Shown: positions 2,332-61,543, counted from the first letter of the stretch. The stretch is 64,000 nt of DNA from a virus (IMGVR_UViG_2710264778_000001:165130-229129); one strand, 5' to 3'. Notes: generated from the sequence alone by a model not told the origin. Numbers and translations: made by a program.

Positions 2332-2370
2332 CTCCTAACCACATAAAATTTCAGTTTTATATATACTTTA

Positions 2371-2598
2371 TTATAATCTATTTACTATAATTTCATAGTC
2401 TTTGAATTTTATTTCTTCAATACTATATATTGAGTATTCTTTTGATTTTAACTTAGAATCTATAAGTATATTTAATGCTTTATCTTTATTTATTGCAGGT
2501 ATTATTTGAACTGTTGTATTTGGGTAGCTATAGTCTTTATCTTCATCACTCCACCATTCTCTAAATGAAATTTTATATAATTTATAATTATCTTTCAC
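2371..2598 (-). CDS. hypothetical protein
   Basis: ORF with AGGAGG RBS. Confidence 0.55.
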   Translation of the reverse strand: MKDNYKLYKISFREWWSDEDKDYSYPNTTVQIIPAINKDKALNILIDSKLKSKEYSIYSIEEIKFKDYEIIVNRL

Positions 2599-2791
2599 TT
2601 TAAATCCTCCTTATTGTGATTATTCGCACCCTTAAAGAATGCAATTATTCCTAATATCATTATTGTCCAAATTATTAAACTTATAATTACTACCTTGAGC
2701 ATATGTAACACCACCTCTTTATTATTTATTTATATTTAATTTAATACATGCTTATTTCAGTTTTATCATGTCTAATAATTCCTTTCCATGT

Positions 2792-3550
2792 TTAGTCATT
2801 AATATCCACTTCATATTTATACATGGAGTTATATAACGCATTAGGAATTATATTTTTGTATTCATTAGCAACCTCTTTAATATATTTTTCTTTTGCTATT
2901 TTATATTTTTTATGTGCTTCAAATTTATCACTGAAACTTCCCAAATATACTTCCCCTTTTAATGTATGTAATCTACTTCTAAATGAATTACTATCTGAAT
3001 TTTCACTTACACCTATTGGCAAATTACCTCTTGACGCATTTGATTTTAAAAATAATTGATTGATTCTTTTTGGCACAAATATACATGTTTCAGGACTGTA
3101 AACTGTATTGCCTTTATAAAGTATATCTTTATCTAATTCAGTTTTACCTAATTCATTTATTTCATAATAATTTTTTTCAAACCATTTGGCAAAGTTTTGA
3201 AAACACAACCAATCATCACATACATATTTGTTTTTATAAGTTGGTTTTTGTGTTTGATATTCTTCACTATAGCAACGCTGTAACATTCTAACCCAATAAC
3301 AATATGCTTTTGTCTTTTCCTTATCTTTGTATGGCAAATAATCTCCCACACCTAAATAACCAACACCAAACACTTTTTTATCATAAGGATTCTTGATTTT
3401 CCCTAGTTTAAATTCTTTATATTGGCAATTAACCACATATTTAAAACTATCTTGGAATTCTACATACATATTATCACTTCTTATATATTTTATAATTTTC
3501 ATTTTAGTACCATTTGTATTTTCTCTTATTTCTCCTATTCTATCTTTCAT
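2792..3550 (-). CDS. free-standing HNH-type homing endonuclease (copy 1 of 4)
   Basis: W..ML.RC, W..FQNFA.W, LDKDIL...N..YS...C.FVP..IN and YLG.F motifs; directly downstream of the ligase gene. Confidence 0.75.
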   Translation of the reverse strand: MKDRIGEIRENTNGTKMKIIKYIRSDNMYVEFQDSFKYVVNCQYKEFKLGKIKNPYDKKVFGVGYLGVGDYLPYKDKEKTKAYCYWVRMLQRCYSEEYQTQKPTYKNKYVCDDWLCFQNFAKWFEKNYYEINELGKTELDKDILYKGNTVYSPETCIFVPKRINQLFLKSNASRGNLPIGVSENSDSNSFRSRLHTLKGEVYLGSFSDKFEAHKKYKIAKEKYIKEVANEYKNIIPNALYNSMYKYEVDIND

Positions 3551-3563
3551 TTAAAATCTCCTT

Positions 3564-4832
3564 TTAATAATAACTTGGCTCACATTTATCAAATCTCCAT
3601 TCGAGAAATACAGGGAATCTTAAACTAGGTTTATTATCTTTACTATTGGTTGTTTCTTCAAAATATTGTATTTTTGCTATTTTCCCTATATATTTATTTG
3701 GATTATTATAGACTTCATTTCTCATTTCATCTGAAAATCCAGAACCAACTCCAATAGTATTATTTTTATATTCAACATTTATTCGACCCAGTGTTCCTTT
3801 ATTTTTTCCTTCGCCTTCCTCGATTGATAGTACTTTAAGGTCAGCATCTTGAAACTTCTTTACTTTTAGTATATTTGACGTTCTTTTACATTCATATGGA
3901 GCATTCGAAAGATTAACCATTACTCCTTCTTCATCATTAGCTATAGCTTCATCTAATAACTTAATTATTACACTTTCATCTTTACCTATGTATCGAATTG
4001 GTACCTCAATTATATTTGTAAATCCATGTACAGATATTAAATTGCTTAATTGTTCTTTTCTCTCTTTACATTTTGTTTTTGAAATACCTTGTTTAAATTC
4101 TTCAAATGTTAAAATATCAAATGCATGTAATGCTAATCCGTGTTTAACACCTTTCTTTCTTGATTCTTTCATTGTTTCTCTATATAAATCCTTCGAATGT
4201 AGCCCCTCTATATTTAAAAGTAATTCTCCGTCTATTACAGTATTATTAGGTATCTTTTTAGAATCTTCTTCGAACTCTACTAATCCTTCTATTTCTTGCC
4301 CTTGTCTTGTAAAATATTTAACTTGCCCATTCTCATCTTTAATTAAAACAAATCTGCATCCATCTAACTTTTGAGTAATAATAAATTCTTTACCTTTTAC
4401 TTTTTGTGGCTTCTCAAAGTATTTATCAGCTAACATCACATTGAACTGTGGAATTAAATCTTTCCATACTTTATTAATACCTTTTGCATTAATACCCATT
4501 CTTAAATCTTTCAGTAAGATACATTTATATAGTTCCATTTCATTTTCATTTTGAATACTTCCAAGAAATGAATTTGCAGTAGCCCTTAAAGAATCATTAA
4601 TGTTTGAACTTGATAATATATCTAACAATTCAAATATATCAATAGTAAAATTAGCACTATTAATTGGATTAATTGATTTCTCACTCATTCCATATTTTTT
4701 AAATGGATCATATGTATACAACAAAACTTTCTTTAATAATTCATTGTCCTTATTCTTTTGTAATATTGCTATTTTTCCATTTGTTGAAGACTCATTTCTT
4801 AATTTTTGTACAATTTCTATTACTTCTTTCAT
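3564..4832 (-). CDS. lig: ATP-dependent DNA ligase
   Basis: KLDGCR adenylation motif, DGEL, AFDIL, EGVMV, ILKVK, and OB-fold VGSGF and LRFP motifs. Confidence 0.95.
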   Translation of the reverse strand: MKEVIEIVQKLRNESSTNGKIAILQKNKDNELLKKVLLYTYDPFKKYGMSEKSINPINSANFTIDIFELLDILSSSNINDSLRATANSFLGSIQNENEMELYKCILLKDLRMGINAKGINKVWKDLIPQFNVMLADKYFEKPQKVKGKEFIITQKLDGCRFVLIKDENGQVKYFTRQGQEIEGLVEFEEDSKKIPNNTVIDGELLLNIEGLHSKDLYRETMKESRKKGVKHGLALHAFDILTFEEFKQGISKTKCKERKEQLSNLISVHGFTNIIEVPIRYIGKDESVIIKLLDEAIANDEEGVMVNLSNAPYECKRTSNILKVKKFQDADLKVLSIEEGEGKNKGTLGRINVEYKNNTIGVGSGFSDEMRNEVYNNPNKYIGKIAKIQYFEETTNSKDNKPSLRFPVFLEWRFDKCEPSYY

Positions 4833-5087
4833 TAAACTCTCTCCTTTAAGTTTTATAATTTTGTATATTTTATTTATTCAATGTTTGCGTTCTTGAAAGC
4901 TTGTTCATATTCACTCATATCATTTTCATCAAACCATTTGCTATAAATATCTGTAACATCTGGAATAGAATCAAATAAATCAACAATGTTATTTGGCATA
5001 ATACAACCCCTCCTAATTTTATAATATAATTTATGTATTTCATATAAGGCTTGGACTATTTACTATTTAGTTCCTACCCTTGATATA

Positions 5088-5116
5088 ATAATACTACTAT
5101 TGCATATTATTGTCAA
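5088..5116 (-). promoter_or_regulatory. sigma-A type promoter with adjacent 19-bp motif
   Basis: TTGACA-N17-TATTAT; recurrent motif at 5119-5137 immediately upstream. Confidence 0.65.
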
Positions 5117-5188
5117 CAACTTATTTATATTTTATTTACATTATTTAAAAAAGGTAGAAAAATAATTTCCACCTTTTAATATATGTAT

Positions 5189-5896
5189 TTATTTAATTAT
5201 AGAAACATCGTCCTGTGACACTACATCATAGTTATTTACTGAAAATCCTATATTTACTTTATCTGAAACATAAGTATGTATTTGATCTGTAATATTTTCT
5301 TTTAAATTTTCTATGCCTTCTTTTCTAAAACTTTCATTAGATAATATTGTATTTCTAGCATAATCTCTAATTCTAGAATTAATTGAATTAATTTCTGAAG
5401 ATGAAAAGTTATTTTGTAACCATCCTACTCTTTCATTAGTCTGAACATCTGATAATTCACATTTATTTAGAGATAGTTTATTATAAGATAAATCAATATA
5501 AATAGTATCATTCTTGATAGTAACTTGAGGATTAGACATATTATAGCTAAACATAAAAGAGAATTGTGAATCTACAGTTATATCTTTACTATTCCAAGTA
5601 TCTATTTTATCTCTTAACCATTTCATTGTTACATCATTTTCAGTTATATTTTTATTGGTAAAAGCACATCTAGTATTAACTATACCTTTTAATACATTAA
5701 GACTATTTTCTTTACTTAGTGCTTTTATTACTGATTCCTTATCTATCACTCTATAGGTTTGTTGTTCTAATGTTGTTTGATTATTTGTATTCGAACTGGC
5801 TTTATGTATGTTCTTGTAGGATTTACATGTGAATAAACTAAGTGTAATTAAAATAATTGTTAATCCTATTATTATAATTTTAATCATCTTACTCAT
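5189..5896 (-). CDS. membrane-anchored hypothetical protein (DUF4230-like)
   Basis: N-terminal hydrophobic segment; family assignment tentative. Confidence 0.5.
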   Translation of the reverse strand: MSKMIKIIIIGLTIILITLSLFTCKSYKNIHKASSNTNNQTTLEQQTYRVIDKESVIKALSKENSLNVLKGIVNTRCAFTNKNITENDVTMKWLRDKIDTWNSKDITVDSQFSFMFSYNMSNPQVTIKNDTIYIDLSYNKLSLNKCELSDVQTNERVGWLQNNFSSSEINSINSRIRDYARNTILSNESFRKEGIENLKENITDQIHTYVSDKVNIGFSVNNYDVVSQDDVSIIK

Positions 5897-6140
5897 TATG
5901 ATCTAGCTCACTTTCATTTGAATTGCTAGACATATTGTCAATTTTTATAATTAAATCTACTATAGGTGAAAATACAAATACTATCCAGTAGTATGTCATA
6001 AGAATTTTTCTATTTTTAGTATGTAGTTTTTGTCCTATTAAAAAAGTAAATGAACCTAAAAGTGAGTAAATTAGAATTATATATAATATTATTATCATTT
6101 TAAATCTCTCCCCATATTTTATTAATTGAAATTTACCCAC
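5889..6140 (-). CDS. hypothetical membrane protein
   Basis: Two hydrophobic segments; overlaps the next gene. Confidence 0.5.
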   Translation of the reverse strand: MGKFQLIKYGERFKMIIILYIILIYSLLGSFTFLIGQKLHTKNRKILMTYYWIVFVFSPIVDLIIKIDNMSSNSNESELDHNE

Positions 6141-6173
6141 TTTCTACTCTTTTGTTATTGTTTTATTTTATTA

Positions 6174-6431
6174 TTAATCTTTTAATAAATCTTTCATTTT
6201 TGTTTCCATTATCTCTATGTTTTTCTCTAGTGTTTCAATGTATTGAGTTATTAAATTTGTAGAATCAAATAGATGTGTTCCAATATATAAATCTTTATCT
6301 TTTTCATATGATTTTAACTGAGTGTTCATTTCTTCCAATAATTTAGATTGTATTTTGATTAATTTCATTATTCTTTTGTGAGTTTTTATGCTTGTATACA
6401 TTAATTTAAGCATAGTAATAAACTTATTCAT
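6174..6431 (-). CDS. hypothetical protein
   Basis: ORF with RBS. Confidence 0.55.
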   Translation of the reverse strand: MNKFITMLKLMYTSIKTHKRIMKLIKIQSKLLEEMNTQLKSYEKDKDLYIGTHLFDSTNLITQYIETLEKNIEIMETKMKDLLKD

Positions 6432-6534
6432 AATCTACTCCTTTCTATAACTTAGTTATAATTTATCTATAAGTAGTTAAATGTATGATTTTAACTAGTT
6501 TTTATAGTTTGGGAGGCTAGTAATAGCCCCATTC

Positions 6535-7173
6535 TTATTTGCCACTAGAACCTCTATTACCTTCTCCTCTTTTAGATGGTATTGATTTTAATTCTTCTAA
6601 TGAAATTTCTTTAACATTCATTTTAGGGACAGGTAAAACAACAGCTTGACATATAGCTTTTTCATATGGATATATAATATGATCTAAGGATAAGTCATCA
6701 ATTAATTCTTCATTCTCTTTTTTAATTATTGCTATAGGATTATTAGTTGTATTTGTTATAGGAACGAACCACTCTCCTCTATATCCTGAATCAATAACAC
6801 CACATCTTTGAGCAATACCTTTTGTTCCTGTAGAACCCCTCTCTTTTAATACAATTGCATAATCTTCACTACAAGCACTACAAATTCCTGTAGGTATCAT
6901 TTTAGTTTCATGAGGATTAATTAACATATATTCTTCATGAAAATCTGCATATATATCATAACCCATGTTTTCTTCATCTTTAGTTGGTATTTTAGCAGTT
7001 TCACTTGTTTTTGCAAATATCAAAGTATTTCCTAATCCTTGATTTAAAATTTCTGTCTTCATGTGTTCTAATGTTTCTTTATTATTGAAATCCATTGTGT
7101 ATCCTACTTCCATGTCAATTCCTCCATTAATTTTAGTATTTACTATTGTGTTGTTGTCTCCTATATTTATCAT
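6535..7173 (-). CDS. dut: trimeric dUTPase
   Basis: GYDIYA, RGS, GVIDSGYRGE, ICQ and C-terminal RGEGNRGSSG motifs. Confidence 0.93.
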   Translation of the reverse strand: MINIGDNNTIVNTKINGGIDMEVGYTMDFNNKETLEHMKTEILNQGLGNTLIFAKTSETAKIPTKDEENMGYDIYADFHEEYMLINPHETKMIPTGICSACSEDYAIVLKERGSTGTKGIAQRCGVIDSGYRGEWFVPITNTTNNPIAIIKKENEELIDDLSLDHIIYPYEKAICQAVVLPVPKMNVKEISLEELKSIPSKRGEGNRGSSGK

Positions 7174-7273
7174 TTATTTCTCTCCTTTAATTTTAATTTG
7201 TTTTATATTTTATTTTTATTCGTCTAACTAACTGCACTTGTGAACAAGTTCGTAAGTTAATTGATATTTTACT

Positions 7274-7528
7274 TTATTTTATAATTAACTTATCTAAATC
7301 TTCTTCATCATAGTTATAAAATTCATCTACTATATGACCAATAAATCCAAATATATCTTCTATTGCTTGTTTAACTTTCTTTTCTTCATCTGTTGGCTGA
7401 TATGTATTAATATCTACTTTATCTAATATCTTTTGGCCTGTTATAGCTAAGTCTGTTTTGAAAATATCTTTTACCTTAGTTATGGTGTCTTTTAATTCTG
7501 TAAGTTCTGTTAGTATTTTAGATTCCAT
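7274..7528 (-). CDS. hypothetical protein
   Basis: ORF with RBS. Confidence 0.55.
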   Translation of the reverse strand: MESKILTELTELKDTITKVKDIFKTDLAITGQKILDKVDINTYQPTDEEKKVKQAIEDIFGFIGHIVDEFYNYDEEDLDKLIIK

Positions 7529-7749
7529 TATATTAATCTCCTTTTAGTAAAATATATAATTTTTATTTGAACCTTCGGTAATAGAATCTCTTGATAATTT
7601 TTCATTTGGGTATTCAGAGTCCCCAAGTTCTATAGTATAATCTTGATTTAATGTTTTAAGATATTCTATTAATTCTGCTACTGTCATTGCATCTTCCATT
7701 TATATTAACTCCTTTCCCAATGCTTTAAATTGTAGTTTTTATTGTCTTT

Positions 7750-8187
7750 TTATTCCCAATCTAAACTAGCAGTTTTCTCTTCAAACTCACCATCTTTAAT
7801 GATAAATCTAAAATGTTCTCCGTCTTCACCACTAAATTGTAAAAATCCATCCTCACAATATGGAGCTATTATTTTAAAGAATGTGTCATCATCACCATAT
7901 TTTTCACCTAAGAAATCTGTTATTATGTAGAAATTATCTTCTTCTTTAATTTCATATCTTAAATCTGACCAAACATCTTCTATTGACATTAATTCATCTT
8001 CTTCATAATCATCGTCCCATGAATGGTCTTCTTTATCTGTCCCTAAGTCAATTTCATTAATATCAAATCCATCTACCCAACGTAAAGTATTTGATTTAAA
8101 ATAATCTGATAGTGTTTGTAGTATTATCTTCATATTTTCCTTTTTAATTTTTATAGTTCCTTCTTCATGACTTATACAATATCCCAT
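7750..8187 (-). CDS. hypothetical acidic protein
   Basis: ORF coupled to the upstream gene. Confidence 0.6.
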   Translation of the reverse strand: MGYCISHEEGTIKIKKENMKIILQTLSDYFKSNTLRWVDGFDINEIDLGTDKEDHSWDDDYEEDELMSIEDVWSDLRYEIKEEDNFYIITDFLGEKYGDDDTFFKIIAPYCEDGFLQFSGEDGEHFRFIIKDGEFEEKTASLDWE

Positions 8188-8189
8188 AA

Positions 8190-8483
8190 CTAATTTTCCT
8201 CCTTGTTTAAAAATAATTTCTTTTCTTCATTTAAATTTAATTTATACTTTTTAACTATATAATCTAATAATTCATCATTGTCAATTTTACTACCATTACA
8301 AAATGGACACATATGTTTAGGTACACTACCACCATTCCCATTTATAATATCAAACCAATCTTTACCTTCTGTATTTTCTATGCATTCGTCACACAAGCTT
8401 CTTCCACATTCCTCACATTCTGATACATACTCTTCATACCTTGCATCTCCACAACAATCACAACTATAATAATCTACTGACAT
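8190..8483 (-). CDS. Cys-rich putative zinc-finger protein
   Basis: Four CxxC pairs. Confidence 0.6.
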   Translation of the reverse strand: MSVDYYSCDCCGDARYEEYVSECEECGRSLCDECIENTEGKDWFDIINGNGGSVPKHMCPFCNGSKIDNDELLDYIVKKYKLNLNEEKKLFLNKEEN

Positions 8484-8595
8484 TTTACATCTCTCCTCTT
8501 TCTTTTATTATTTAATTTATTTGTAATGTCATAAAATATTCTTTTGATTGACTTTTTTGTTTTAAGATAAGGGAATAAATCCCCTATCTATTAGC

Positions 8596-11391: not shown

Positions 11392-11418
11392 TTGACCACT
11401 CTCTTTCTATTTTATAAT

Positions 11419-13153: not shown

Positions 13154-13174
13154 AATATTATTTCTCCTTTTTAA

Positions 13175-13426: not shown

Positions 13427-13644
13427 AATTATCTCTCCTTTTATATATCATATATTTTATTTACTTTCCCTTAAAATTAACATTTTAACAGGTTATCTGA
13501 CCTCTGTAAGCTAGTAAACAAGCCATTCTTAAATTTAATTTTTATAAAAATTGACTAATTTTAAGAATTTGCTCTATAATCGCTTAGAAATCAATTTTTC
13601 TCAAAAATTCTGTTTTTAACAATTCTATATAATTATAGACGACT

Positions 13645-14482: not shown

Positions 14483-14699
14483 ATTTTATAACTCCTTTAT
14501 TAATTTATTTTTATATTTTATTTAAATCTATTCTTTTATTGTTTCTTGCATTCTTCATACATAAAATTTAATATCCCTATTATAGCTATAAACTTTAAAT
14601 AAGATATATCATTAGTAATTAGTATGCAAATAATAACTAGCACATCTAATATCAATGATATCTTTGTAGATAATTTCATTATTTATATTCACCTTCTTT

Positions 14700-16190: not shown

Positions 16191-16390
16191 TCCTTTATTA
16201 TTTTAATTTGGGTTGGCTTAGTATTCTGTCAACTCTAAATTGTCGGAATGTCATGATATTAATTAATTTTATTATGTAATAATTATTATTAGTTGTATAA
16301 ATAATATCACATTTTTTGTATTATTAGTATAAAATTCTTTCGACATTTGGTAGATGTTATATTAGTAAATCTCTGGTTAAAATCTGCAAT

Positions 16391-16588
16391 TTACTTATTC
16401 TGTAATTGATAAAAATTAACACCAACTTTTCCAACATCAATATCTGCTATAAGTATTGTATTGATTCTTGTAACTATAATATTACTCTTATCATTTGTAA
16501 TACTTATATTATCAATTTCTTTATCTCCATTAATATTAATATACTTCTCAACTTCATTTCTAATATCACTTAATTTCATTGGTTTCAC
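16391..16588 (-). CDS. hypothetical protein
   Basis: ORF with RBS. Confidence 0.5.
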   Translation of the reverse strand: MKPMKLSDIRNEVEKYININGDKEIDNISITNDKSNIIVTRINTILIADIDVGKVGVNFYQLQNK

Positions 16589-23554: not shown

Positions 23555-23618
23555 TATTCACTCCTTAATATTTATATAATTTATTTCTAAATAAAATTTC
23601 TCTTTTAAAAAATTCGCA

Positions 23619-26482: not shown

Positions 26483-26584
26483 AATGTCACCTCTTTTAAA
26501 CTTAATTATAATTTATTTATTTCCTTATAAAACAAGCTTTTTAACTAGTTGTCCAACTCTCTAAATGCCCTAGAATAGCCATTA

Positions 26585-46074: not shown

Positions 46075-46428
46075 ATTTAATTTTATTAATATTATTTATA
46101 TTTTATCTTTACCACTTCTTAATCTTAACATTATTTAACTTTCGTGTCAATACTTAATTATATTTTATTTCTTTATGTATTTCTGTTAAGTTATTCCTTA
46201 GTTCTTGTTAATCATACCATTGTTTGGATATGCCTGTCAACTATTATTTTAAACTATTTTATATTTTGTTTAAATCAACATAAAACAGACTATTTATTGG
46301 GTTTTTAAATTCCCATTCAATGGTATCTCTGAATCAAGTCAGGCTTAACCACAGGCGTTAAATAAAAGCCTTCTCTACATATGTTTTATTGTCAATAAAC
46401 AAAATATAAATAATTATTTACTCAACTA

Positions 46429-48735: not shown

Positions 48736-48809
48736 TCATATCATTCTCCTTTGAAATTATTTATAATTTATTTACATTCCAATAAAATACATTTTTTATG
48801 TACTCTTAT

Positions 48810-48868: not shown

Positions 48869-48997
48869 TTATTGTTGATTTTCTATAATAATACTAAGTT
48901 GTCCACATGCTGAACCAGATTCAACTTCTGCTTTTGTAGCAATTGCTACAGCATAATCATAACCTTCAGCTTCTAATTGGTTTTTGATTTCTTCCAT
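48869..48997 (-). CDS. 42-aa peptide equivalent to the RlmN/Cfr C-terminus (ACGQL); not in ORF track
   Basis: AGGAGG RBS and ATG; MEEIKNQLEAEGYDYAVAIATKAEVESGSACGQLSIIIENQQ*. Confidence 0.85.
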   Translation of the reverse strand: MEEIKNQLEAEGYDYAVAIATKAEVESGSACGQLSIIIENQQ

Positions 48998-49419
48998 AAT
49001 GATACCTCCTTTTCATTTTGATATTCTTTATGTATTAATGTGAAACCTAGTTGATTTAATATTTTAAAATAATCCCTATATGTTTCACTAAACCATATTT
49101 CATTTCTAGGAATTATAAATCTATACCAAAGTCTATCTAAAAAGAAATTAGATTTATAATATTCTTTTCTGCATTCAATTATTTTAATAGTTCCATCCAT
49201 TTTTAAATATGTATATAATTTATTTATTACAATATCTATATCTTTTATATGGTGTATTACATTTCTTAAATGAAATTTATCTACTGTGTTTTCTTTTAAT
49301 CCAATTATTTCATTATTACTAACATCATAATAATAATTTAAATATGGAGCTTTTGTTATATCACAAGTTTTATATCCTTCTTTTGGATTATAACCACTTC
49401 CAAAATCTATCTTAAGCAT
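48973..49419 (-). CDS. class I SAM-dependent methyltransferase
   Basis: IDFGSG motif I, CD, VIHH and LK.DG motifs. Confidence 0.75.
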   Translation of the reverse strand: MLKIDFGSGYNPKEGYKTCDITKAPYLNYYYDVSNNEIIGLKENTVDKFHLRNVIHHIKDIDIVINKLYTYLKMDGTIKIIECRKEYYKSNFFLDRLWYRFIIPRNEIWFSETYRDYFKILNQLGFTLIHKEYQNEKEVSLWKKSKTN

Positions 49420-50138
49420 GTATTACCTACTTTATCACAATAAGATTCCCACTTACAAAAATTACCCACTGGAGAAATTATAATATCTGTATCGTCATAT
49501 TTACTATAATGTGCAAACACTCCAAATTCATGACCATTCCATGTGTAACTTAAAAAATTATGTCCATCATCTTTTATAAATGTAGCAGGTAACTTTTTTT
49601 CAAAATCAAATTCTCCATATCTACCCATTAAATCTTCACATACTACAACATAAAAATCATCTTCAAGAATTACTTTTAGTATTTCAACTAATTTATCTCC
49701 TGTTGATTCCCAACACTTAGGTATATTAATTCTTGTGTTTGGTACATACTTTTTACAAATTAAAGCTTGTTCTCTTCTTTGTTTATATTGCTCTAATGAA
49801 GATATTGATATTGCAACTTCTGTTAATCCAGCTTCAGAATAACTTTTCATTCGTTCTTCATTTAGTAATATTCCATTAGTAACTAAACAAACATCATTTT
49901 CAACATTATCTCTTGTGAGTCTGATGAATTCAGGTAAATTATCAATTAATGTTGATTCTCCACCCATAATAGTTGCTCTTTTTAACTTTCCTACTTTAGC
50001 CATTGTTTCTTTTGCTTTCTCAATATCTAATCTTAATTTTCTTTTATCTGGCTGATAACAGAAATAACAATTAGGGCTCATATTACAATCTAAATTCGTA
50101 ATTATTCTATATCTAAAAATTCCATCTTTCACACTCAT
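49407..50138 (-). CDS. radical SAM protein (Cx5Cx2C variant)
   Basis: TNLDCNMSPNCYFCY, MGGE, VTNG and AISI motifs. Confidence 0.85.
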   Translation of the reverse strand: MSVKDGIFRYRIITNLDCNMSPNCYFCYQPDKRKLRLDIEKAKETMAKVGKLKRATIMGGESTLIDNLPEFIRLTRDNVENDVCLVTNGILLNEERMKSYSEAGLTEVAISISSLEQYKQRREQALICKKYVPNTRINIPKCWESTGDKLVEILKVILEDDFYVVVCEDLMGRYGEFDFEKKLPATFIKDDGHNFLSYTWNGHEFGVFAHYSKYDDTDIIISPVGNFCKWESYCDKVGNTCLR

Positions 50139-50150
50139 TTTTAATTACCT

Positions 50151-50939
50151 TTAAACTAGATTAATTCCAGTTATAATACCCTTTCCCATATGATTCTTCT
50201 CAGAAACTTCATTTACATTGATAGGTGATAACTTTACAAAGAAAAAATCTTTATTAAAGTATTCTTTAAGTTTACACATATCAAAGTCCGCTTCATCAAC
50301 TAAAGTTAAATTAATTGTTGTTTTAAGATTACTTTGAGTTCTGATTTGTCCTAATTCTCTAATGGTTAATTTATTTACAAATGGTATTAAATCATTTCTT
50401 CTATCATCGTCAAAAGAATGTAATGATATTTGCAATGTTATATTATCTTTTATAAAACTAAAATCTGAACCTTTAACCCCTATAGTAGATATGTAATGAT
50501 GTGTATTAGGATATTTTTCATTGATAATTGAAATAGCCTTTTTAACTTCTTCAATGTTTAAAAATGGTTCGCCCATTCTAGTATAATTGATCTTAAATTC
50601 TTGACTATTTAATGGACTATAATCTTTATTCTTAGAAATAATAAATTCTACTTGTTCTACTATTTCTTCGGCAGTTAAATTTCTATATCTTTTTAATTGA
50701 CCAGTTGCACAGAATTTACATCTTACAGGACATCCACTCATACATGAAACTCCTATCATCCATCTTTCTTTTCTACTACCTAATTCATTATTATCTAGTC
50801 CATTTTGCTTTCTACCTATTGCATCCTTTGTATAGTAAGGTAAAAATGTATCTGTCACTTCTAATGGATAACCATCTTCTGTTTTTAAGGCATATACATT
50901 ACCATTTGAAAAACTTTTATTTGCTAAAACTTTTAACAT
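50151..50939 (-). CDS. RlmN/Cfr-like radical SAM protein lacking its C-terminus
   Basis: VSCMSGCPVRCKFCATG, RNLTAEEIVEQV, MGEP, IST.G and ISLH....RR..LIP motifs; stops before ACGQL. Confidence 0.85.
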   Translation of the reverse strand: MLKVLANKSFSNGNVYALKTEDGYPLEVTDTFLPYYTKDAIGRKQNGLDNNELGSRKERWMIGVSCMSGCPVRCKFCATGQLKRYRNLTAEEIVEQVEFIISKNKDYSPLNSQEFKINYTRMGEPFLNIEEVKKAISIINEKYPNTHHYISTIGVKGSDFSFIKDNITLQISLHSFDDDRRNDLIPFVNKLTIRELGQIRTQSNLKTTINLTLVDEADFDMCKLKEYFNKDFFFVKLSPINVNEVSEKNHMGKGIITGINLV

Positions 50940-51003
50940 ATCAATTCATTTCCTCTCATTTTTATATTTTGTTCACATTCACTTAAAACTAATATTTTAA
51001 AAT

Positions 51004-51579: not shown

Positions 51580-51800
51580 AAGTTTACCTCCTATAATTTA
51601 TTTCGCCTTAAAAATCTCATTTTAGACAGATTTAAATTCTATTTTGGCTTTAATTAATAAACAAATCAACTCATCTATTTCAGTAAACTTTAAATAAAAA
51701 CCACAATCAGCTTGTTCACAATTTAAAAATACATCTATATTGTCAATTTTCTTAACACTAAAATTATCTGTTCCAATTCTATTGATTATATTATCCATTC

Positions 51801-52600: not shown

Positions 52601-52647
52601 TTATAAAAACTCAACTCCTTTAATATATATTTTATTTAATCAACTTC

Positions 52648-53526: not shown

Positions 53527-53576
53527 AAGTTTACTACCTCCTAACCTTTTAAACTTTCCATTTTAAAAAATGACTA

Positions 53577-53960: not shown

Positions 53961-53998
53961 TTATAATTCACTCCTTTTTTAATTACCTATATTTTATT

Positions 53999-54265: not shown

Positions 54266-54267
54266 TA

Positions 54268-54735
54268 TTAAAATCCCCCTCTATAACATTTAATTTTTGC
54301 TTCATCTCCAAGAATATTCTTTAATAATTTAGTTATACTTTCTTCAAATTCCTCTTTGTTATGAGGTATCTTTTCATTAGATTTATTTTCAACTTTGGGT
54401 TCTTGTTTTGTATTCTTTCTGTAATTATCAAATATTTCTTTATTGTAAAATATTTTCGTTTGTCCAAAACTTTCATCAAGTAAATATCCTTGATTCATTA
54501 TTAATTCTTTCTTTACTTCATCATGAAGTGGAAATTTAACCAATGCAAATTTAGGATACTCACACTTACCATCTATAGCCTGTTTAAATTTATTTTCCAT
54601 ATCATAGAGTGCATTTTCAACTAATCTCATTTGTAATTGTATTTCTCTCTGCAATCTAATTTCTTGTCGTTTCTTTTCTTCATCTTTCTTATGTATTTCA
54701 TTTAGTAAACTATTAAATTGATTTGCTTTAATCAT
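54268..54735 (-). CDS. hypothetical protein
   Basis: ORF with RBS after a promoter-like region. Confidence 0.55.
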   Translation of the reverse strand: MIKANQFNSLLNEIHKKDEEKKRQEIRLQREIQLQMRLVENALYDMENKFKQAIDGKCEYPKFALVKFPLHDEVKKELIMNQGYLLDESFGQTKIFYNKEIFDNYRKNTKQEPKVENKSNEKIPHNKEEFEESITKLLKNILGDEAKIKCYRGGF

Positions 54736-54836
54736 TTTAAATCTTTCCTTTCTTTAATTATATATATTTTATTTGCTTCTTGATATAATCTTACTACCAT
54801 AATATTCTAAAGTCAACAATTATTTATAATTTATTT

Positions 54837-55337
54837 TTATTCCCAAATTTCTTTATGTTTAATTATCTCTTCAATTCTTTTACTCTCACGTTTACCACAC
54901 CAATTACATACTCTTGTAGTGCCATCTGTATATGTAAATCTAGTATTATTAACATCTTGATACCATCCATCATGATCTATAAATAAACATCTGCCTATTT
55001 CTTCGTATCTTTTCCAAAACTCATCTGTAATATCTATGTATTCATCTTTAATATTAATCCTACAACTTAATTTATATATATTTTGACCAGTTACTATTTT
55101 AGACAATGAATTACCTATCACATCAGCATCATTCATATTACCTATATAAATATTTGCAAGTGGTAGAAAATTCATATCTAACTCTATTAAATGTCCATCA
55201 TAATTATCTACAGGATCAAAGTAAACTTTATTATATCCTTGTTTAATATATTTCTTTAAGAACTTATATAAATTACTAGAATATTTATCACTTATTTTAA
55301 TATCATTTGGTTTAAATTTATTAATATCTAATATCAT
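54837..55337 (-). CDS. hypothetical phage protein
   Basis: DIT..FW..Y...GRC and C.WCG motifs. Confidence 0.6.
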   Translation of the reverse strand: MILDINKFKPNDIKISDKYSSNLYKFLKKYIKQGYNKVYFDPVDNYDGHLIELDMNFLPLANIYIGNMNDADVIGNSLSKIVTGQNIYKLSCRINIKDEYIDITDEFWKRYEEIGRCLFIDHDGWYQDVNNTRFTYTDGTTRVCNWCGKRESKRIEEIIKHKEIWE

Positions 55338-55350
55338 TTTTATCTCTCCT

Positions 55351-55563
55351 TTATTTTATTCCTAAATAATTTGCATACACACTTACTAAGTAATAAGCCG
55401 CATTATACCCTATGATAATAGCAGGAATATCTATTAACACTTGAACCCAAACTAAATTTGTATTAATATTTGTATATTTTTTCAATATTATTTCGCTTAA
55501 CTTCCATATTGGTAAACTACATATCCAAACTAAAGTAAATGCAACTATATAAATCTTAAACAT
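55351..55563 (-). CDS. hypothetical membrane protein
   Basis: Two hydrophobic segments. Confidence 0.5.
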   Translation of the reverse strand: MFKIYIVAFTLVWICSLPIWKLSEIILKKYTNINTNLVWVQVLIDIPAIIIGYNAAYYLVSVYANYLGIK

Positions 55564-55886
55564 TATAATCCTCTACCTTTCAGTTTTAGTTTATTATATA
55601 ATTTGTTCCTATTATCGACACGTTTTAAATGCTTTTTGTAAAATCTGTATTTATTGTGATCAATCATTCTTCCCATTTCTAAAAATAATTTTCTTAATCC
55701 TTTTGATTTCTTAAATTTTGTAATTTGTATCTCACCAGTAAAAGATTTAAATGGAGCATCCACGGTTTTAGTTTCTATATCATTAATCTTTAATTTATTA
55801 ATTTGAATATCTTTTAAATCAAATGTACATACTTTAATTCCATTTGACCATAATGTACAATTGTTAAATTTTAATTCTTCTCCCAT
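55563..55886 (-). CDS. hypothetical protein
   Basis: ORF with RBS. Confidence 0.55.
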   Translation of the reverse strand: MGEELKFNNCTLWSNGIKVCTFDLKDIQINKLKINDIETKTVDAPFKSFTGEIQITKFKKSKGLRKLFLEMGRMIDHNKYRFYKKHLKRVDNRNKLYNKLKLKGRGL

Positions 55887-55908
55887 AAATAATTCTCCTT
55901 TATATTAT

Positions 55909-56292
55909 TTAATTTTGTGATTTATTTTTATAAAATAATTTTTGAAATATAGTTCTTTTTTTATTTTTTAAATTCTCTCTAGTTCCTTCTATTTTTAGTT
56001 CAATTTCTTTATTATTAAATATTATATTATTATTTAGTTCATTAAAACTATTCCAACACTCATTATAAAAATTTTTATCATCTTCATTTGTAAAAATATA
56101 ATCTGTGTATAATTCATGTCTGCTTAATTTTATATTATATTTATATTGAAGAATATTATAATCTGTTCCATCTATTGTGATTTTATCATTACTTTTAAGC
56201 TCCCTTTCTGTTTTTATAATTTTAACTTTTTTATTTTCAAGTACTTTCTTTTCTGTTTTAAATATTGGATTATGTAATATATTACGTTTCAA
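55909..56292 (-). CDS. hypothetical protein (5' end possibly frameshifted)
   Basis: Minus-strand ORF. Confidence 0.45.
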   Translation of the reverse strand: MKRNILHNPIFKTEKKVLENKKVKIIKTERELKSNDKITIDGTDYNILQYKYNIKLSRHELYTDYIFTNEDDKNFYNECWNSFNELNNNIIFNNKEIELKIEGTRENLKNKKRTIFQKLFYKNKSQN

Positions 56293-56519
56293 AAGTTCTA
56301 GTTCTTTTATATCATCATATGAATTCGTTTATAAATATAAATATACGGTTTTTTTAAATATTCTTCAAAAGAACAAGGTAAAACAGCAATATTCCTAATC
56401 CATAAAGGGTTAATATCTGGAACACATACATTGTATTTAAATTTAACTTTTTGTCCAAATATACAGTATTCTATCATTATTTCTTCAACTCCTTCATCCT
56501 TATAAAATTAAATTTTTAT

Positions 56520-56702
56520 TTAGACTTGTAATATGCTATCATCATACCATAAAATCCTATATCCATATTCTCTTTCACCAAAGAACATTGATTGAAAATA
56601 CTTTATACAGTCATTTATATTTTCGCCTTTATATATGTAAGTACAACACGTTTGTTTATCTTCGATTTCTAACTCAATTTTGACTGGCTCACTAACTACC
56701 AT
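56520..56702 (-). CDS. hypothetical protein
   Basis: ORF with RBS. Confidence 0.5.
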   Translation of the reverse strand: MVVSEPVKIELEIEDKQTCCTYIYKGENINDCIKYFQSMFFGEREYGYRILWYDDSILQV

Positions 56703-56716
56703 ATTATTTATCTCCT

Positions 56717-57259
56717 TTAATTATTAACTTTCAATCTGTTTAAACTCTCTCCTATAGCTTCAGTATATCCACAACCACCATTATAATAACTTAGTACATA
56801 AGAAATAGTTCCATCTGAATTTTCTTTTGCCTCAAATATATCGTCACCACAACACTCTCTGTCCTCTATAACTTCATATACATTACCTTTATGTATAATA
56901 TATCTTTCGTCAGAATCTCTTATAGCTTCTTCATACGAGTCATAATAGTTGTCTAATCGTTTTATTCCTAGCATTCTCTTACATTGTTCTTCTAAAGTTT
57001 CATTTTCTAATTTTTCTATTAATTTAATTCTTTGAACAATTTTATATTTAAATTCGTCTTCACCTACAATTGTCATTCTGATAAGCCATCTTTGACCAGT
57101 ATATACTTCAAGTTCTGTCATAGTATCATAATAATAACTTATACCTTCATCATCTTTAAAACAATATTGATTTCCTTGGTTTGGATATTTCTCACTCACT
57201 TCATGGTCTGAAGCAATTGTTACAGGCATTTCAATTCTTTTTTGTTCTATTTTAATCAT
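56717..57259 (-). CDS. hypothetical protein
   Basis: ORF with AGGAGG RBS; YYNGG motif. Confidence 0.6.
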   Translation of the reverse strand: MIKIEQKRIEMPVTIASDHEVSEKYPNQGNQYCFKDDEGISYYYDTMTELEVYTGQRWLIRMTIVGEDEFKYKIVQRIKLIEKLENETLEEQCKRMLGIKRLDNYYDSYEEAIRDSDERYIIHKGNVYEVIEDRECCGDDIFEAKENSDGTISYVLSYYNGGCGYTEAIGESLNRLKVNN

Positions 57260-57307
57260 TTTATCCTCCTAATTTCTGCTTAAAATGGCTCTTTTAAATG
57301 AACTACC

Positions 57308-57568
57308 TTATATTAATTTCAGCATCCAATCATCATTTTTATCACTATAAGTTTCTATAAATTTATCTATATTTTTCATTATTTCATCCTCTGTATCTCC
57401 TTCAATTTCTTGTTTACCCGAATCTAATCTATTGTCTTTATTCCATATAAAATCAAAATAAATAATTACACAATACTCAATATTACCTTCTTTATCATTT
57501 GGGCTTTCAATATAAACGTCTTTAAAGCCTTTTAATAATATTTTTTCTTTCAATGTCATTATAAGCAC
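57308..57568 (-). CDS. hypothetical protein
   Basis: Single ORF between two TAAAA-N6-TTTTA sites. Confidence 0.55.
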   Translation of the reverse strand: MLIMTLKEKILLKGFKDVYIESPNDKEGNIEYCVIIYFDFIWNKDNRLDSGKQEIEGDTEDEIMKNIDKFIETYSDKNDDWMLKLI

Positions 57569-57603
57569 GTTCCTTTCATCATAAAATTATTGTTTTATAA
57601 ATA

Positions 57604-57837
57604 TTATTCAACTTCTTCTTTATTTCTTTCAATTTGCTTATTTAATTCTTTTTTTATATTAAACGCCTCTATAAGTATATTAATGCAATTAATTACATTT
57701 TCATCTTTTTGTAATGTTCCAAGTTTAATTAAATCCTGAATAACATCATATTTAAACTTTATTGATTGCAAACTTCTTGTTTCTAAGCCTTTAGTATCCA
57801 ACATAATTATTTTACCTCCATTTCTTTCTAAATTCAT
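57604..57837 (-). CDS. hypothetical protein
   Basis: Minus-strand ORF. Confidence 0.5.
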   Translation of the reverse strand: MNLERNGGKIIMLDTKGLETRSLQSIKFKYDVIQDLIKLGTLQKDENVINCINILIEAFNIKKELNKQIERNKEEVE

Positions 57838-58031
57838 TATTATTATTTTAATGTTTTTTGATTTAATATAACTTCATTACTAATTTGATAATCATTTAAT
57901 GCTTGTTTTATTATATTTAATATACGATTTTCGTTATCATCTTTTTCATTTATAAGTAATTTAATATCATATTGGATTATCATAATTTCACCTCACTTCA
58001 TTTAAAAGATATATTTGATTAAGACTTTGGA

Positions 58032-58319
58032 TTATTTCAAATCCAATAATTTCAAACAACTAGAAACATGATCTTGAGAACTTTTATTATTTTCTGCTAT
58101 AGCACTAAACATTGCAGTTTCAAAGTTATTTACACCAAAGTTATAAAAACATTTTTTACCTTCAATAAATGGGAAATATAAAGAAAAATTTTCATTGTAT
58201 CTAACTTTAGCAATTTGATATTTTCCCTCTATATTTATTACATCTAATACTTCCACTTTAGCCTTTGTTTTCTCATCCTCTAATCTGAAAAATTCTTTTA
58301 CTTTTTCTATCATATCCAT
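58032..58319 (-). CDS. hypothetical protein
   Basis: ORF with AGGAGG RBS. Confidence 0.55.
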   Translation of the reverse strand: MDMIEKVKEFFRLEDEKTKAKVEVLDVINIEGKYQIAKVRYNENFSLYFPFIEGKKCFYNFGVNNFETAMFSAIAENNKSSQDHVSSCLKLLDLK

Positions 58320-58392
58320 TTTTCATTCCTCCTAAATTTTATTAAAATATAGTTTTATAATTACGAGGAAGAAAATTCTTCCTACATTTTAA

Positions 58393-58722
58393 TTAGTCTT
58401 CATTGTAGATTGACTCTTCACCATTCATAAATCTAACAACATCCACATCTAAATTTTCACCAAAATAGGCTTCATACATTTCCGGAGAGATTGGTGTAAT
58501 TTTTGCTTTATTTCTATTTAGTATACTTGCATTCTCATCTACTATTATTTCTGTTTCAAATACAAGCCAGTTTCTATCTACTACTATTGACTCTATTGTG
58601 ATAGCTTCTGGTTCATATTTATTATTAACAAATAATCCTCTTTCTTCACTATATTCATATATAGGCATTTCATGATCACTCCATGCTAAATTATCTAAAC
58701 TTATTGCTTTTACCTTTTTCAT
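58393..58722 (-). CDS. hypothetical protein
   Basis: ORF with RBS. Confidence 0.55.
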   Translation of the reverse strand: MKKVKAISLDNLAWSDHEMPIYEYSEERGLFVNNKYEPEAITIESIVVDRNWLVFETEIIVDENASILNRNKAKITPISPEMYEAYFGENLDVDVVRFMNGEESIYNED

Positions 58723-58988
58723 ATTCTCACTACTCCTTTTATTCTACTATTATTAATTATTATATCCTAAAATCTCTGAATACTCGTCACAACCTAAAGG
58801 TTGGACGGTTCTAAATTAATTAATACTCTTACTAACTCTCATTTATAGCATTGTTATCATCTATATCTTACAACATTTAGTCTATTATATTAATTATCAT
58901 TAGACTTTCTTGCCAATTTCTATATTTAGAAAATTAACGACAAAGGCACGATTCTAATACCTTTTTTATTTGCAATTTTTATTATTAA

Positions 58989-60431
58989 TTATATTCCCAT
59001 ACTTGAAATTAATCTATTATCACTATTTTTAATTCTTATTATTTCAATATCATGCAATGTTTTAAAACTATCAAATTCACTTAGTAATTTATCTCTATCT
59101 ATTGTATCTAATTTCATTTTATCATCTATTATTACATTCTTTATTATTAAACCACTCATTAAATCTCTTTGTATTTTGCAATTCTCAAACTCATTCCATC
59201 TTTGAGATAATTTCTTTTTAATATATTCATCAGTAAATGGATTATATTGACTAGCCTTAACTTTATAAGTATTAACTTTAAATAACCATAAACTTTCATA
59301 TTTTAATTTTCTATTTAGTATTTCTAAAAACATACTCGGCGCTTTGTTTGCTAGACTCTTTCCAAATCTTTTCTTTTTATTAAATTTGCCTGTCTTCTCA
59401 TTTATAGTTGTATTTTTACTTCTAGCTTGTAATCCACTATAATTCATAGTTTCGACTTTTATTATATTTCCTAAAGATAAAACATAATTAGCTAGTTCTT
59501 CATGAGATTGTTTTCTAATCCTAGCCATTTTTCCTTGAATATCTCTTAGTTTATTTTGAGTTTTAATATAATTCTTGGATTTAATCCATTTATCTCTATT
59601 ATGAATATTAATTGTTTCATCTTCATTATATTTATTAGGATTGTTAGCACGTCTTTGTCTATCTAATTTTCTAGATAATCTAGTTTTAACTTTTTGAATA
59701 TTATTAATTCCCTCAGCTAATTCTAATAACTTAGTTTCATTATCTGATACAATAGCTACTGTTCTAGTTCCAATATCTAGCCCAACTTCACCTTGTCCAA
59801 TATCTCTTTTTTTAGGTGGTATTCCTGTTAAAACTAATTGAACATAATATAAATTTCTATTTCCCTTTTGTTTTCTTATTATTCTACAATATTTAATTTT
59901 ATCCTGTAATGCTAATTGTGCATATTCATCATTATTTCTAACAACGCATTCTAAAATTAAATCATTGAAATATATTCTACCATCTCTATATCTAATTCCT
60001 TGTCTATTAGTTAATCCTTCGATAGAATACATTTCATTGTATCTAATAAAATTAACTCGTTTAGCATTTCCAAATCTCATTCTATCTATTGTTTTTATAA
60101 CTCTAGCAGATAATGCTTGAACTGTATTTGCATCTATATCTTTAAATTCATTAACTCTTAAAGAAGTTGAATATTTATTTAAAGCAAATTTATCATAGTT
60201 AGCATATTCTTCTGCTTGTTTAAATAAACTAGATTTAGTTTTCTTATCAGTTTCTATTCTTGCTTGTTGATATAATTTAGATTCTCTCATTAGTCTAAAT
60301 CTTCTTAATCCTTCATCTAGTAAAGCATTGTATAGTTTTCTTGATAATTCAAAGTATTTATCTAATGCCACTATTTCTGATTTATTTGTTTTAAGCTTTA
60401 AAGTTAATACATAACTATCTGTTTTCGCCAT
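58989..60431 (-). CDS. tnpB: TnpB RNA-guided endonuclease
   Basis: R.LYN, GLDIG, KVE, ASQ and QRD motifs; follows tnpA. Confidence 0.88.
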   Translation of the reverse strand: MAKTDSYVLTLKLKTNKSEIVALDKYFELSRKLYNALLDEGLRRFRLMRESKLYQQARIETDKKTKSSLFKQAEEYANYDKFALNKYSTSLRVNEFKDIDANTVQALSARVIKTIDRMRFGNAKRVNFIRYNEMYSIEGLTNRQGIRYRDGRIYFNDLILECVVRNNDEYAQLALQDKIKYCRIIRKQKGNRNLYYVQLVLTGIPPKKRDIGQGEVGLDIGTRTVAIVSDNETKLLELAEGINNIQKVKTRLSRKLDRQRRANNPNKYNEDETINIHNRDKWIKSKNYIKTQNKLRDIQGKMARIRKQSHEELANYVLSLGNIIKVETMNYSGLQARSKNTTINEKTGKFNKKKRFGKSLANKAPSMFLEILNRKLKYESLWLFKVNTYKVKASQYNPFTDEYIKKKLSQRWNEFENCKIQRDLMSGLIIKNVIIDDKMKLDTIDRDKLLSEFDSFKTLHDIEIIRIKNSDNRLISSMGI

Positions 60432-60480
60432 AAATATTCACTTCCTTTCGTTTTATATAATATATTTTGTTACTAATATA

Positions 60481-60509
60481 ATTATACTCTTTTTAGTATA
60501 ATTTGTCAA
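60481..60509 (-). promoter_or_regulatory. consensus sigma-A promoter for IS tnpB
   Basis: TTGACA-N17-TATAAT. Confidence 0.75.
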
Positions 60510-60512
60510 ATA

Positions 60513-60932
60513 TTACTTACCTTGATTTTCAATATATTTCTTTACTACTTCTAGGCTTACGCTTCCTACAGTAGCAATAAAAGTTGACCTACTCCAAAAC
60601 TTTCCTCCCCATAATTTATTACGTTTTATATATGGAAATTCTTCAAATAATCTATGAGCAGAAATTTGTTTTATTAAAGAGACACATTTACAAATACCAA
60701 ATCTAGGATTACAAGTTATTATCATGTGAATATGGTCTCTATCTGTTTCAATATCTTCTATGATAAAATCATAAGCTTTAGAAACTTCTATACAAATTTC
60801 TTTTAATCTATCTGAAACTTTACCTACTAATATTTTATGTCTATATTTAGGACAAAATACTATATGATAACTACAACGAAAAACTAAATGTTCACTCGAA
60901 TAATATTTATCATTTTCTCTATATTGTTTCAT
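60513..60932 (-). CDS. tnpA: Y1 HUH transposase
   Basis: YHIVFCPKYR, DHIH, LWGGKFWS and catalytic YIENQ motifs. Confidence 0.95.
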   Translation of the reverse strand: MKQYRENDKYYSSEHLVFRCSYHIVFCPKYRHKILVGKVSDRLKEICIEVSKAYDFIIEDIETDRDHIHMIITCNPRFGICKCVSLIKQISAHRLFEEFPYIKRNKLWGGKFWSRSTFIATVGSVSLEVVKKYIENQGK

Positions 60933-61543
60933 TTTATTCTCCTCAAAGGGCTATTCCTCTGCACAAGCTAAAGCTTGGCAGTTACCTAGCCTAATTTTAT
61001 ATGTAATTTATTATTGTATAATTCATTTATGCTTATACCAAACTCAATTACCATGTTTTTCACCTCCTTACAAATACTATATTACCATAATTTATTTTAT
61101 CTGTCAAATACTTATTTATATTTGTTTACATCTATATAAAATCACAGATTTATTGGATTTTTCATAATATTTATATTCTTTACTTTAACTTAATTATATT
61201 TTATCCTTAACAGTATTATACAATAAATCAAAACCTTCTCTAGTAAATTTTATCCTTGGTAAATATTCATCATAATTTACAGCATATTCTCATTCTGATA
61301 CTCACAATTTAACTTTTGTTTTCTTCTAATTTGATATATTATATTTTCATTTAATAGTATATCAATTAAATTTTGATAATTGATTTTAAGTTTTCTTTCT
61401 ATATCTGCTGTGCTAAAATATTTAATCTTTTTATTTATTTTCTAATGACTTTGTTTTCATTAATTAATTTTCCTAGTCTTTCTTTTAACATCCAACCTTC
61501 TAATAATAAATTATCTTTTCATTTATTATTATTTTATCTCCAT

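Follow-up and report, generated by a model that had tools for sequence, protein, structure and literature searches.

Phage genomes are mosaics, and ever since a modular theory of their evolution was put forward it has been an open question how modules can be exchanged while the genes stay intact; one stretch of viral DNA raises it in concrete form. The window, as the whole 64,000-nucleotide (nt) stretch is called here, forms the end of a viral record of 229,129 bp (IMGVR_UViG_2710264778_000001, positions 165130–229129); its genes all lie on the minus strand and its G+C content is ~26%. A short palindrome, TAAAA-N6-TTTTA, punctuates its accessory genes, and an initial annotation made from the sequence had read the copies as integron-like recombination sites through which the phage gains and loses gene cassettes. 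Are these sites the places at which phages swap genes and, if so, what acts on them? The comparisons described below make it probable that the palindromes are joints of exchange; the fuller proposal, that they would serve as addressed recombination joints for in-register gene exchange with an enzyme of the YomM type as the likeliest agent, is about an even bet. If true, one short palindrome family would be the physical answer to the mosaic question for a large phage group that includes SPbeta, the phages of the Bacillus cereus group and Clostridium phage c-st.

The ten exact copies in the window, found just where the initial annotation had placed them, exceed the 2.6 ± 1.4 expected (0 of 100 shuffles reached 10), and the excess is confined to a spacing of six, the other spacings from 0 to 15 giving 0–3 copies each. 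Since bases 1–15928 of the record recur at 210205–226138 with 99.9% identity, the unique genome comprises ~210.2 kb. In its 29.6 kb of intergenic DNA there are 29 sites, where 2.3 ± 1.45 are expected, and in its coding DNA 3, where 6.3 are; the n = 6 enrichment anticipated by the initial annotation is thus present, and the shuffle counts together with the spike rule out chance in AT-rich DNA. Departures from the arm sequence are hardly tolerated. In intergenic DNA genome-wide, 36 copies have one mismatch where 33 are expected, and in the window 49 copies have at most one where 46.8 are, so that the approximately 14 near-exact copies originally counted as sites belong to a class that occurs at chance. 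Mismatches are enriched only at the innermost arm position (14 against 6.5 expected, genome-wide intergenic), and there is no excess of paired arm changes of the kind that keeps a stem intact (12 against 13.3). This near-zero tolerance and the lack of compensatory enrichment argue that the site is read as sequence, not as a hairpin. An extension of the form ccww…wwgg had also been proposed, and its downstream half holds: on the gene-sense strand the flank is directional, with a downstream G-G-A in 17, 19 and 25 of 33 sites, but the upstream mirror C is weak (7–8 of 33) and the symmetry does not stand.

The placement of the sites after a stop codon and ahead of the next ribosome-binding site (RBS) was likewise borne out: of 22 co-directional junctions, 13 have the site 1–20 nt past the stop codon of the upstream gene and ahead of the RBS that follows. 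The exact copy at 2344..2359, for example, starts 11 nt past the stop of gene 2371–2598 and directly before the RBS of gene 2002–2331; that at 50984..50999 lies 4 nt past the stop of a YopX-domain gene, and that at 51609..51624 overlaps the stop codon of gene 51622–51798. The TAA of the left arm is itself the stop codon in 4–12 junctions per genome (SPbeta, FADO, Goe13, E3). Five sites lie between convergent genes and two between divergent genes, and the sites of the present phage are dispersed over both gene-strand blocks of its 210-kb genome. As the initial annotation had remarked of the replisome block, no exact copy occurs between window positions 26544 and 48782, which span it.

Judged from its genes, the phage is a large, AT-rich relative of the SPbeta group: its DNA polymerase shares 38% identity with YorL from the Bacillus phage SPbeta, and the genome also encodes homologues of YonO, YonN, YopQ and YomM. 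Two relatives bear on what happens at the sites. The first, a contig of 1791 bp (L099), is 97% identical to window 58032–57574, through the exact site at 57582..57597, and the homology stops 8 nt downstream of it. L099 then has four unrelated genes (1.1 kb) in the place of the window's single 86-amino-acid (aa) gene (57308..57568, minus strand), and further on the identical 16-mer of the site at 57281..57296, followed by another unrelated gene. With the same two sites surrounding different genes, the cassette between 57582 and 57281 has evidently been replaced; the genes of the L099 cassette were found on no other contig on record. Within the L099 homology a copy at 58003..58018 with one mismatch at an outer arm position is also kept, a possible degenerate site of a class not above chance, which together with a second one-mismatch copy and possible degenerate site (58342..58357) brackets a 95-aa gene (58032–58319).

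The second relative, G001, is a viral record of 140.9 kb (57% complete) that was found by a scan for the 16-mer of site 57281 plus two flanking bases. It has its own spike, with 32 copies at n = 6, 30 of them intergenic, and is far diverged from the present phage: 50 of its 254 genes have a homologue, at a median protein identity of 48%, and 11% of its DNA aligns by blastn at ~70% identity. Even so, seven 16-mers are identical in the two genomes, in a single orientation and collinear, G001 positions 25716 and 33844 corresponding to genome 42740 and 37154, and G001 70975, 74512, 80368, 111949 and 113721 to window 57281, 56503, 48783, 26528 and 23592. Chance would account for 1.36 shared sites (P for at least seven, 4.5e-4; P for that order and orientation, 3.5e-5). 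None of the seven has blastn homology over 20–136 bp on either side, and identity reaches at most 1–5 nt past the 16-mer. The flanks at 23592..23607 and 26528..26543 are not homologous, and the DNA around 57281 is unrelated on both sides in G001 and L099 alike. The intervals between shared sites hold mostly unrelated genes; between 57281 and 56503..56518, where the window has two genes (60 and 180 aa; 56520..57259, minus strand), G001 has 3.5 kb with 9 genes, none homologous to either. The shared site at 48783..48798 marks the downstream end of a radical S-adenosylmethionine/methyltransferase module (48869..50939, minus strand) whose other bracket is the site at 50984. With seven identical 16-mers kept in line within DNA that cannot be aligned, the six-base centres, on this comparison, outlast the genes between them, which no operator, terminator or promoter model predicts. 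The repressor or nucleoid-protein site that had been offered as the alternative to recombination gives no account of an ordered conservation of six-base centres while both flanks are replaced.

Other routes led to less informative relatives. A megablast of 20 kb of the window against a phage collection gave no match, and a DNA polymerase search of viral contigs found no relative; three relatives reached through YomM (L088, L090, L092) are so diverged that only the YomM gene aligns (77–78%). Exact-protein look-ups returned the same phage at 99.7–100% identity (L095–L098), hence no variation; one of these, the 99.7%-identical Logan contig L096, ends 3 nt beyond the site at 56503. In sequencing run X7, joints at 57297→57571, 58024→58327 and 48800→50968 coincide with units that the initial annotation had described as bracketed by sites, and they are taken as a hint only, given their short sides (27–36 letters) and 88% likeness.

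A denser comparison comes from the Spbetavirus genomes, in which SPbeta, phi3Ts, Goe13 and SPR share 21–28 of ~34 16-mers per pair, with identical centres. The order of shared sites is kept in 27 of 27, 20 of 20 and 21 of 21 cases, and in 19 of 20 to 25 of 26 in pairs with SPR, whose record is circularly permuted. Homology detectable by blastn is present on both sides in only about one third to half of the shared sites, and each pair shows 4–8 islands without homology on either side and 1–5 intervals that are wholly replaced. Where homology is one-sided, on either side, the homologous stretch starts at −2..0 or breaks off at +15..+16 of the 16-mer, the centre being identical, and the same site forms the left border of homology in one comparison and the right border in another. 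Junctions with a site carry the ends of homology blocks more often than other junctions (odds ratio 3.4–5, p 0.0007–0.008, in four of six pairs). FADO, which belongs to another phage group, shares 5–7 16-mers with the SPbeta group, and its positions 49735–50098 match Goe13 122318–121955 over 364 bp at 100% identity between unrelated flanks, the match running from the first base of one site to 3 nt past the next. Across L099, G001, the Spbetaviruses and FADO, breakpoints of gene gain and loss fall at the sites, which is where the initial annotation had suggested looking for them; neither of the outcomes that it had named as refuting the idea was seen. A separate arrangement was noted in phi3Ts, in which sequence matching the left flank of SPbeta site 87599 runs on into the centre and right arm that belong to SPbeta site 88400. 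Homology breaks off once five bases of the left arm have passed, and the arrangement resembles the product of a deletion from one site to the other, with a crossover at the border of arm and centre.

The palindrome extends over phages of several host genera. Counts at n = 6 reach 34 in SPbeta, 30 in phi3Ts, 37 in Goe13, 35 in SPR and 33 in FADO; Clostridium phage c-st has 31 (5–13 at other spacings), and 120 kb of Geobacillus E3 contain 26. Measured against a reversed-pattern control, the excess is 17 to 2 in Perkons, 28 to 1 in Mammaliicoccus phi36, 23 to 3 in Tsamsa and 17 to 8 in a Staphylococcus SPbeta-like phage; Staphylococcus phage K (4 and 4) and the faecal phage MT835469 (7 and 5) do not stand out against this control. 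Literature searches on the motif, on YomM and on SPbeta palindromes found no description of such joints or of such a palindrome.

How might such joints work? Two related phages present in one cell, by co-infection or by infection of a lysogen, would exchange DNA at joints whose centres match. Each palindrome has two invariant 5-bp inverted arms and a 6-bp centre that differs from junction to junction, and occupies the brief stretch that separates a stop codon from the following RBS. The arms would be bound by a dimeric tyrosine recombinase of the phage, which would exchange strands across the centre, and the centre would have to match in both partners; the crossover would fall inside the site. 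A gene block would in this way be replaced in register, with its genes unbroken and their order kept. A joint whose centre had mutated would be overwritten when a larger block spanning it was exchanged, and such overwriting would hold the addresses constant across the gene pool. Inverted 5-bp arms around a 6-bp spacer have the geometry of a tyrosine-recombinase core, in which two inverted arms flank 6–8 bp (here exactly 6). Recombination at such a core would leave junctions within the site, between partners of the same spacer, and the comparisons show homology boundaries at the site edges with identical centres. If the scheme is true, the palindromes would also be a simple annotation marker of cassette borders in these phages, borders that would mark the likely turnover of accessory genes, including those for defence and anti-defence.

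The initial annotation had placed the responsible recombinase outside the window. Three integrase-family genes are present in the genome, and one of them, a homologue of YomM (334 aa, genome 162457–163461), lies 1.7 kb before the window and is itself followed by a palindrome, 5 nt past its stop codon. The predicted presence of such a gene is thus upheld; it is the candidate enzyme of the scheme, a role to which somewhat less than an even chance is given. The YomM homologue is 51.6% identical to SPbeta YomM, compared with 38% for the DNA polymerase, and in three relatives it is the sole stretch in its surroundings that aligns by blastn (77–78%), the proteins being 79–81% identical. Among 122 members of the family, R182, K213, H284 and Y321 never vary, and all but one member have K287 and all but one H311, giving an active site R-K-H-K-H-Y in which Lys replaces the second catalytic Arg (121 of 122). 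Such constancy suggests that selection maintains an active site whose chemistry is unusual; MrpR, by contrast, has lost its catalytic residues. Homologues of YomM occur in 11 of 12 named palindrome-rich phages tested, and no function of the protein is described in the literature searched. YomM-like genes were also seen in FADO and, as neighbours of the tape-measure gene within the tail module, in Tsamsa and Lactococcus 949. The other two integrase-family genes encode a canonical Xer-like protein (327 aa) and an MrpR-like protein (392 aa, genome 31802–34376 region) whose N-terminal match to PF22822 is weak (24.7 bits, cut-off 27). The MrpR-like gene lies directly downstream of the YopQ homologue, the place of yopR/mrpR in SPbeta, and from this position its product is probably the master repressor of the phage.

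Several observations weigh against such joints, or against YomM as the enzyme that serves them. In each SPbeta pair, 30–34 of 41–47 block ends at junctions fall at junctions without a site, and the association of sites with block ends may be inflated by a clustering of sites in variable regions. The homology of contig L091 to the YopX gene (93%) stops in the first bases of site 50984, and the L091 site has a different centre; for a small zinc-ribbon gene that G001 also has, homology is confined to the gene, from the start codon until shortly before the stop codon, and does not end at a shared site. In laboratory hybrids of phi3Ts and SPbeta (Hyb1, Hyb3) the crossover intervals are extended tracts of identity or, in one case, 40 bp that contain no site. 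Ordinary homologous recombination is enough to account for these hybrids, which lend no support to a use of the sites in those crosses, and the sites are not needed for recombination between near-identical DNA. The presence of YomM and that of the spike also come apart: c-st has the spike and no YomM homologue, only a generic tyrosine recombinase ~20% identical, and a YomM-like gene accompanies no spike in MT835469 and a weak one in Lactococcus 949 (7 against 3). Changes equivalent to the Arg-to-Lys replacement cripple model tyrosine recombinases. Finally, five invariant base pairs are short for a recombinase arm, of which ~9–13 bp would be conserved, and what is added to them here is a weak flank that is directional and not symmetric.

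The strongest version of the exchange reading is held only tentatively. According to it, Firmicutes phages of the SPbeta, FADO and Tsamsa types would share a dedicated machine, an ordered grid of ~30 sites and a Lys-substituted recombinase of the YomM type. Exchange would take place only between the same six-base addresses, and any gene block could be swapped in register across species and host genera. Through concerted evolution the addresses would persist much longer than the genes lying between them.

Exchange at the joints might also proceed with no recombinase of its own. The 16–18 identical bases would then act as microhomology, for single-strand annealing by a protein of the Sak4/RecT type or for template switching by the phage replisome, and the palindrome may promote a pause or break. 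The persistence of the sites in c-st without YomM fits this route, as do the origin of the laboratory hybrids in ordinary homologous recombination, a Sak4-like annealing protein annotated in SPbeta, and the proteins common to all five palindrome-rich genomes compared, which, in a search for a universal binding protein, are only the terminase, the tape measure, the DNA polymerase and a YorJ-like replication protein. The islands of identity also fit, their 16–18 bp being just sufficient for annealing. On the other side, a match of sixteen bases is near the lower limit for annealing proteins. Left unexplained are the palindromic arms, invariant across phages of Bacillus, Geobacillus, Staphylococcus, Mammaliicoccus and clostridia, and the exclusive use of a spacing of six. 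An exchange by microhomology is judged unlikely, though less so than the explanations that follow.

A second alternative makes the palindrome an operator-type site, bound by a dimeric regulator, a roadblock or a nucleoid protein, with the link to breakpoints being secondary. The 5-6-5 geometry is that of CRP/FNR-type sites, the arms are strict and free of compensatory changes, the centres of the half-sites are 11 bp apart and so face the same side of the helix, and the downstream flank is directional. In at least eight sites of the genome (six exact, among them that at 13472..13487) the TTTTA arm is placed exactly 17 nt upstream of the TATA in an abundant promoter-like motif, that is, at the −35 position. 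Four exact sites of the window have no such TATA partner, stand directly before an RBS and leave no room for a −10 element, and in many sites of SPbeta and FADO the left arm is a stop codon inside a long operon. Nor is it clear why a spacer not contacted by the regulator should be kept at each individual site, and in the original sequence of sites, amid flanks that are replaced or diverged beyond alignment. Chromatin affinity purification sequencing (ChAP-seq) of MrpR, moreover, gave ten peaks at promoters carrying the SPBRE box and not at the 34 palindromes (PMC10516654). An operator function is for these reasons judged improbable.

The promoter-like motif deserves mention in its own right. 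It is directional, reads approximately AAAyAAAwTATAAwTAAGT and has 141 sense and 16 antisense copies in the genome under a loose pattern, 93 of them intergenic; examples in the window lie at 1316–1351, 5044–5100, 12824–12907, 16589–16613, 29080–29119 and 36609–36640. It usually starts 2 nt past a stop codon, and either an RBS follows it or a TTGACA box stands immediately downstream. Its core, TATAAATA, is T4-late-like, and the motif looks like a phage-specific promoter or a relative of SPBRE.

An RNA element, in the form of a weak hairpin or intercistronic tag for termination, processing or translational coupling, would suit sites that lie on the transcribed strand between a stop codon and the next RBS, often with the stop codon in the left arm, and yet is very improbable, since 28-nt windows around the sites fold at a mean of only −1.6 kcal/mol (z = −0.9 against shuffles), none of the terminator-like sites falls on a palindrome, the arms show no excess of compensatory changes, the conserved centres go unexplained and some sites lie between convergent or divergent genes. 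Other candidates were rejected outright. An intrinsic terminator fails because the stem is all A-T and neither of the two terminator-like sites in an 18-kb scan falls at a palindrome; the canonical TTGACA-17-TATAAT promoters of the region, as for sigma-70, are located elsewhere; and a restriction–modification target site does not appear to fit sites that are enriched and intergenic, not avoided. An SPBRE/MrpR operator is likewise discarded, the box derived from the ten SPbeta ChAP-seq promoters being a different, non-palindromic one without the palindrome.

Returning to exchange joints as the preferred interpretation, how do they compare with systems already described? Susskind and Botstein, and Clark and colleagues in 2001, are said to have proposed conserved 'linker' sequences at module boundaries for the exchange of modules among lambdoid phages. 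The likeness lies in short, conserved intergenic sequences that border exchanged modules; the difference is that the linkers are heterogeneous stretches of ordinary homology, in contrast to one strict palindrome of fixed geometry with 30-plus copies per genome in phages of several host genera. Integrons, invoked by the initial annotation, resemble the present arrangement in having promoter-poor, co-oriented small genes, each with a recombination-type site just past its stop codon, and in the gain, loss and replacement of cassettes. Integron attC sites, however, are long imperfect palindromes (~57–141 nt) used as folded single strands, and integrons have a platform of intI, attI and Pc and do not address the order of their cassettes. 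The sites described here are 16 bp long, barely fold in 28-nt windows and occur genome-wide, and the three integrase-family genes do not head an array, although no search for an IntI-specific domain was made. The swappable cassettes of the initial annotation are therefore supported by comparison, and its integron label is not, for want of an attC and of an attI/Pc/IntI platform.

The dif modules of Acinetobacter plasmids, with their pdif sites, provide a closer parallel (Mindlin et al. 2019, PMC6449649). Here too short inverted arms flank a 6-bp spacer, many copies occur in accessory regions, and site-flanked genes recur in other contexts, from which their movement was inferred comparatively. 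The arms of pdif are 11 bp long and are read by the host XerC/XerD, in contrast to the 5 invariant base pairs and the candidate phage enzyme with an unusual active site proposed here; pdif modules are carried by plasmids and move freely, whereas in these phage genomes the junction-specific centres are kept in order and form an ordered grid. As to a cognate recombinase, the genome offers both the YomM homologue and the Xer-like protein. SPBRE, finally, is a set of dispersed intergenic repeats in the same phage group, with a reader of the tyrosine-recombinase fold, and the present genome has the MrpR-like gene (PF22822). Its non-palindromic box, of 15 bp (MEME) to 24–26 bp (crystal structure), occurs at SigA promoters, ~ten in number, and is bound in its 24–26-bp form by SroF/MrpR as a monomer (PMC10516654; bioRxiv 10.1101/2025.11.27.690993). 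The reader of SPBRE (MrpR/YopR/SroF) lacks the catalytic residues that YomM keeps.

Several further features of the window and the record were noted. The innermost arm position being the sole enriched class of mismatch, the one-mismatch copies of this kind at 14523..14538, 16378..16393, 6478..6493, 46281..46296 and 61137..61152 are possible degenerate sites, those at 6478 and 46281 with the 17-nt spacing to a downstream TATA. The repeat at the ends of the record places a duplicate of genome 1–15928 at window 45076–61009 (99.9%), reflecting terminal redundancy or circular permutation. The site at 48783–48798 lies in this repeat, and its counterpart at genome 3708 has one T fewer in the right-arm run (a spacing of 5, compared with 6), which is either a homopolymer error or a real heterogeneity of the site. 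Beside the site at 50984, the YopX-domain protein (window 51004–51579) has an extra N-terminal part resembling a treble-clef zinc finger (PF13451, below cut-off); its closest relatives, 53–91% identical and 120–134 aa long, cover only the C-terminal ~60%.

As to where the phage resides, four sequencing runs (X1–X4) contain the stretch nearly whole (0.91–0.99 of sampled words) in small contig sets of 4–7 Mb that carry one bacterial species label and come from three studies; the phage is therefore probably carried by isolates of that species in culture, whether as a prophage or as a plasmid-prophage. Parts of the stretch also occur in soil, root and freshwater samples (runs X6–X16). An RNA run (X18) gave 2 reads. 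The final 5.2 kb of the record (window 58770–64000) are an inverted copy of genome 89965–95196, joined through a 2.2-kb repeat that is an insertion sequence of the IS200/IS605 type, and because the inverted copy is joined through a copy of this element the last 3 kb of the window are probably misjoined. The element itself (window 58764–61003) encodes a Y1 transposase (139 aa, PF01797, 138 bits) and a 480-aa TnpB-like open reading frame, has three copies in the genome (13689–15928, 66710–68970 and, reversed, 92953–95215), and is 76% identical to a copy in Clostridium phage c-st.

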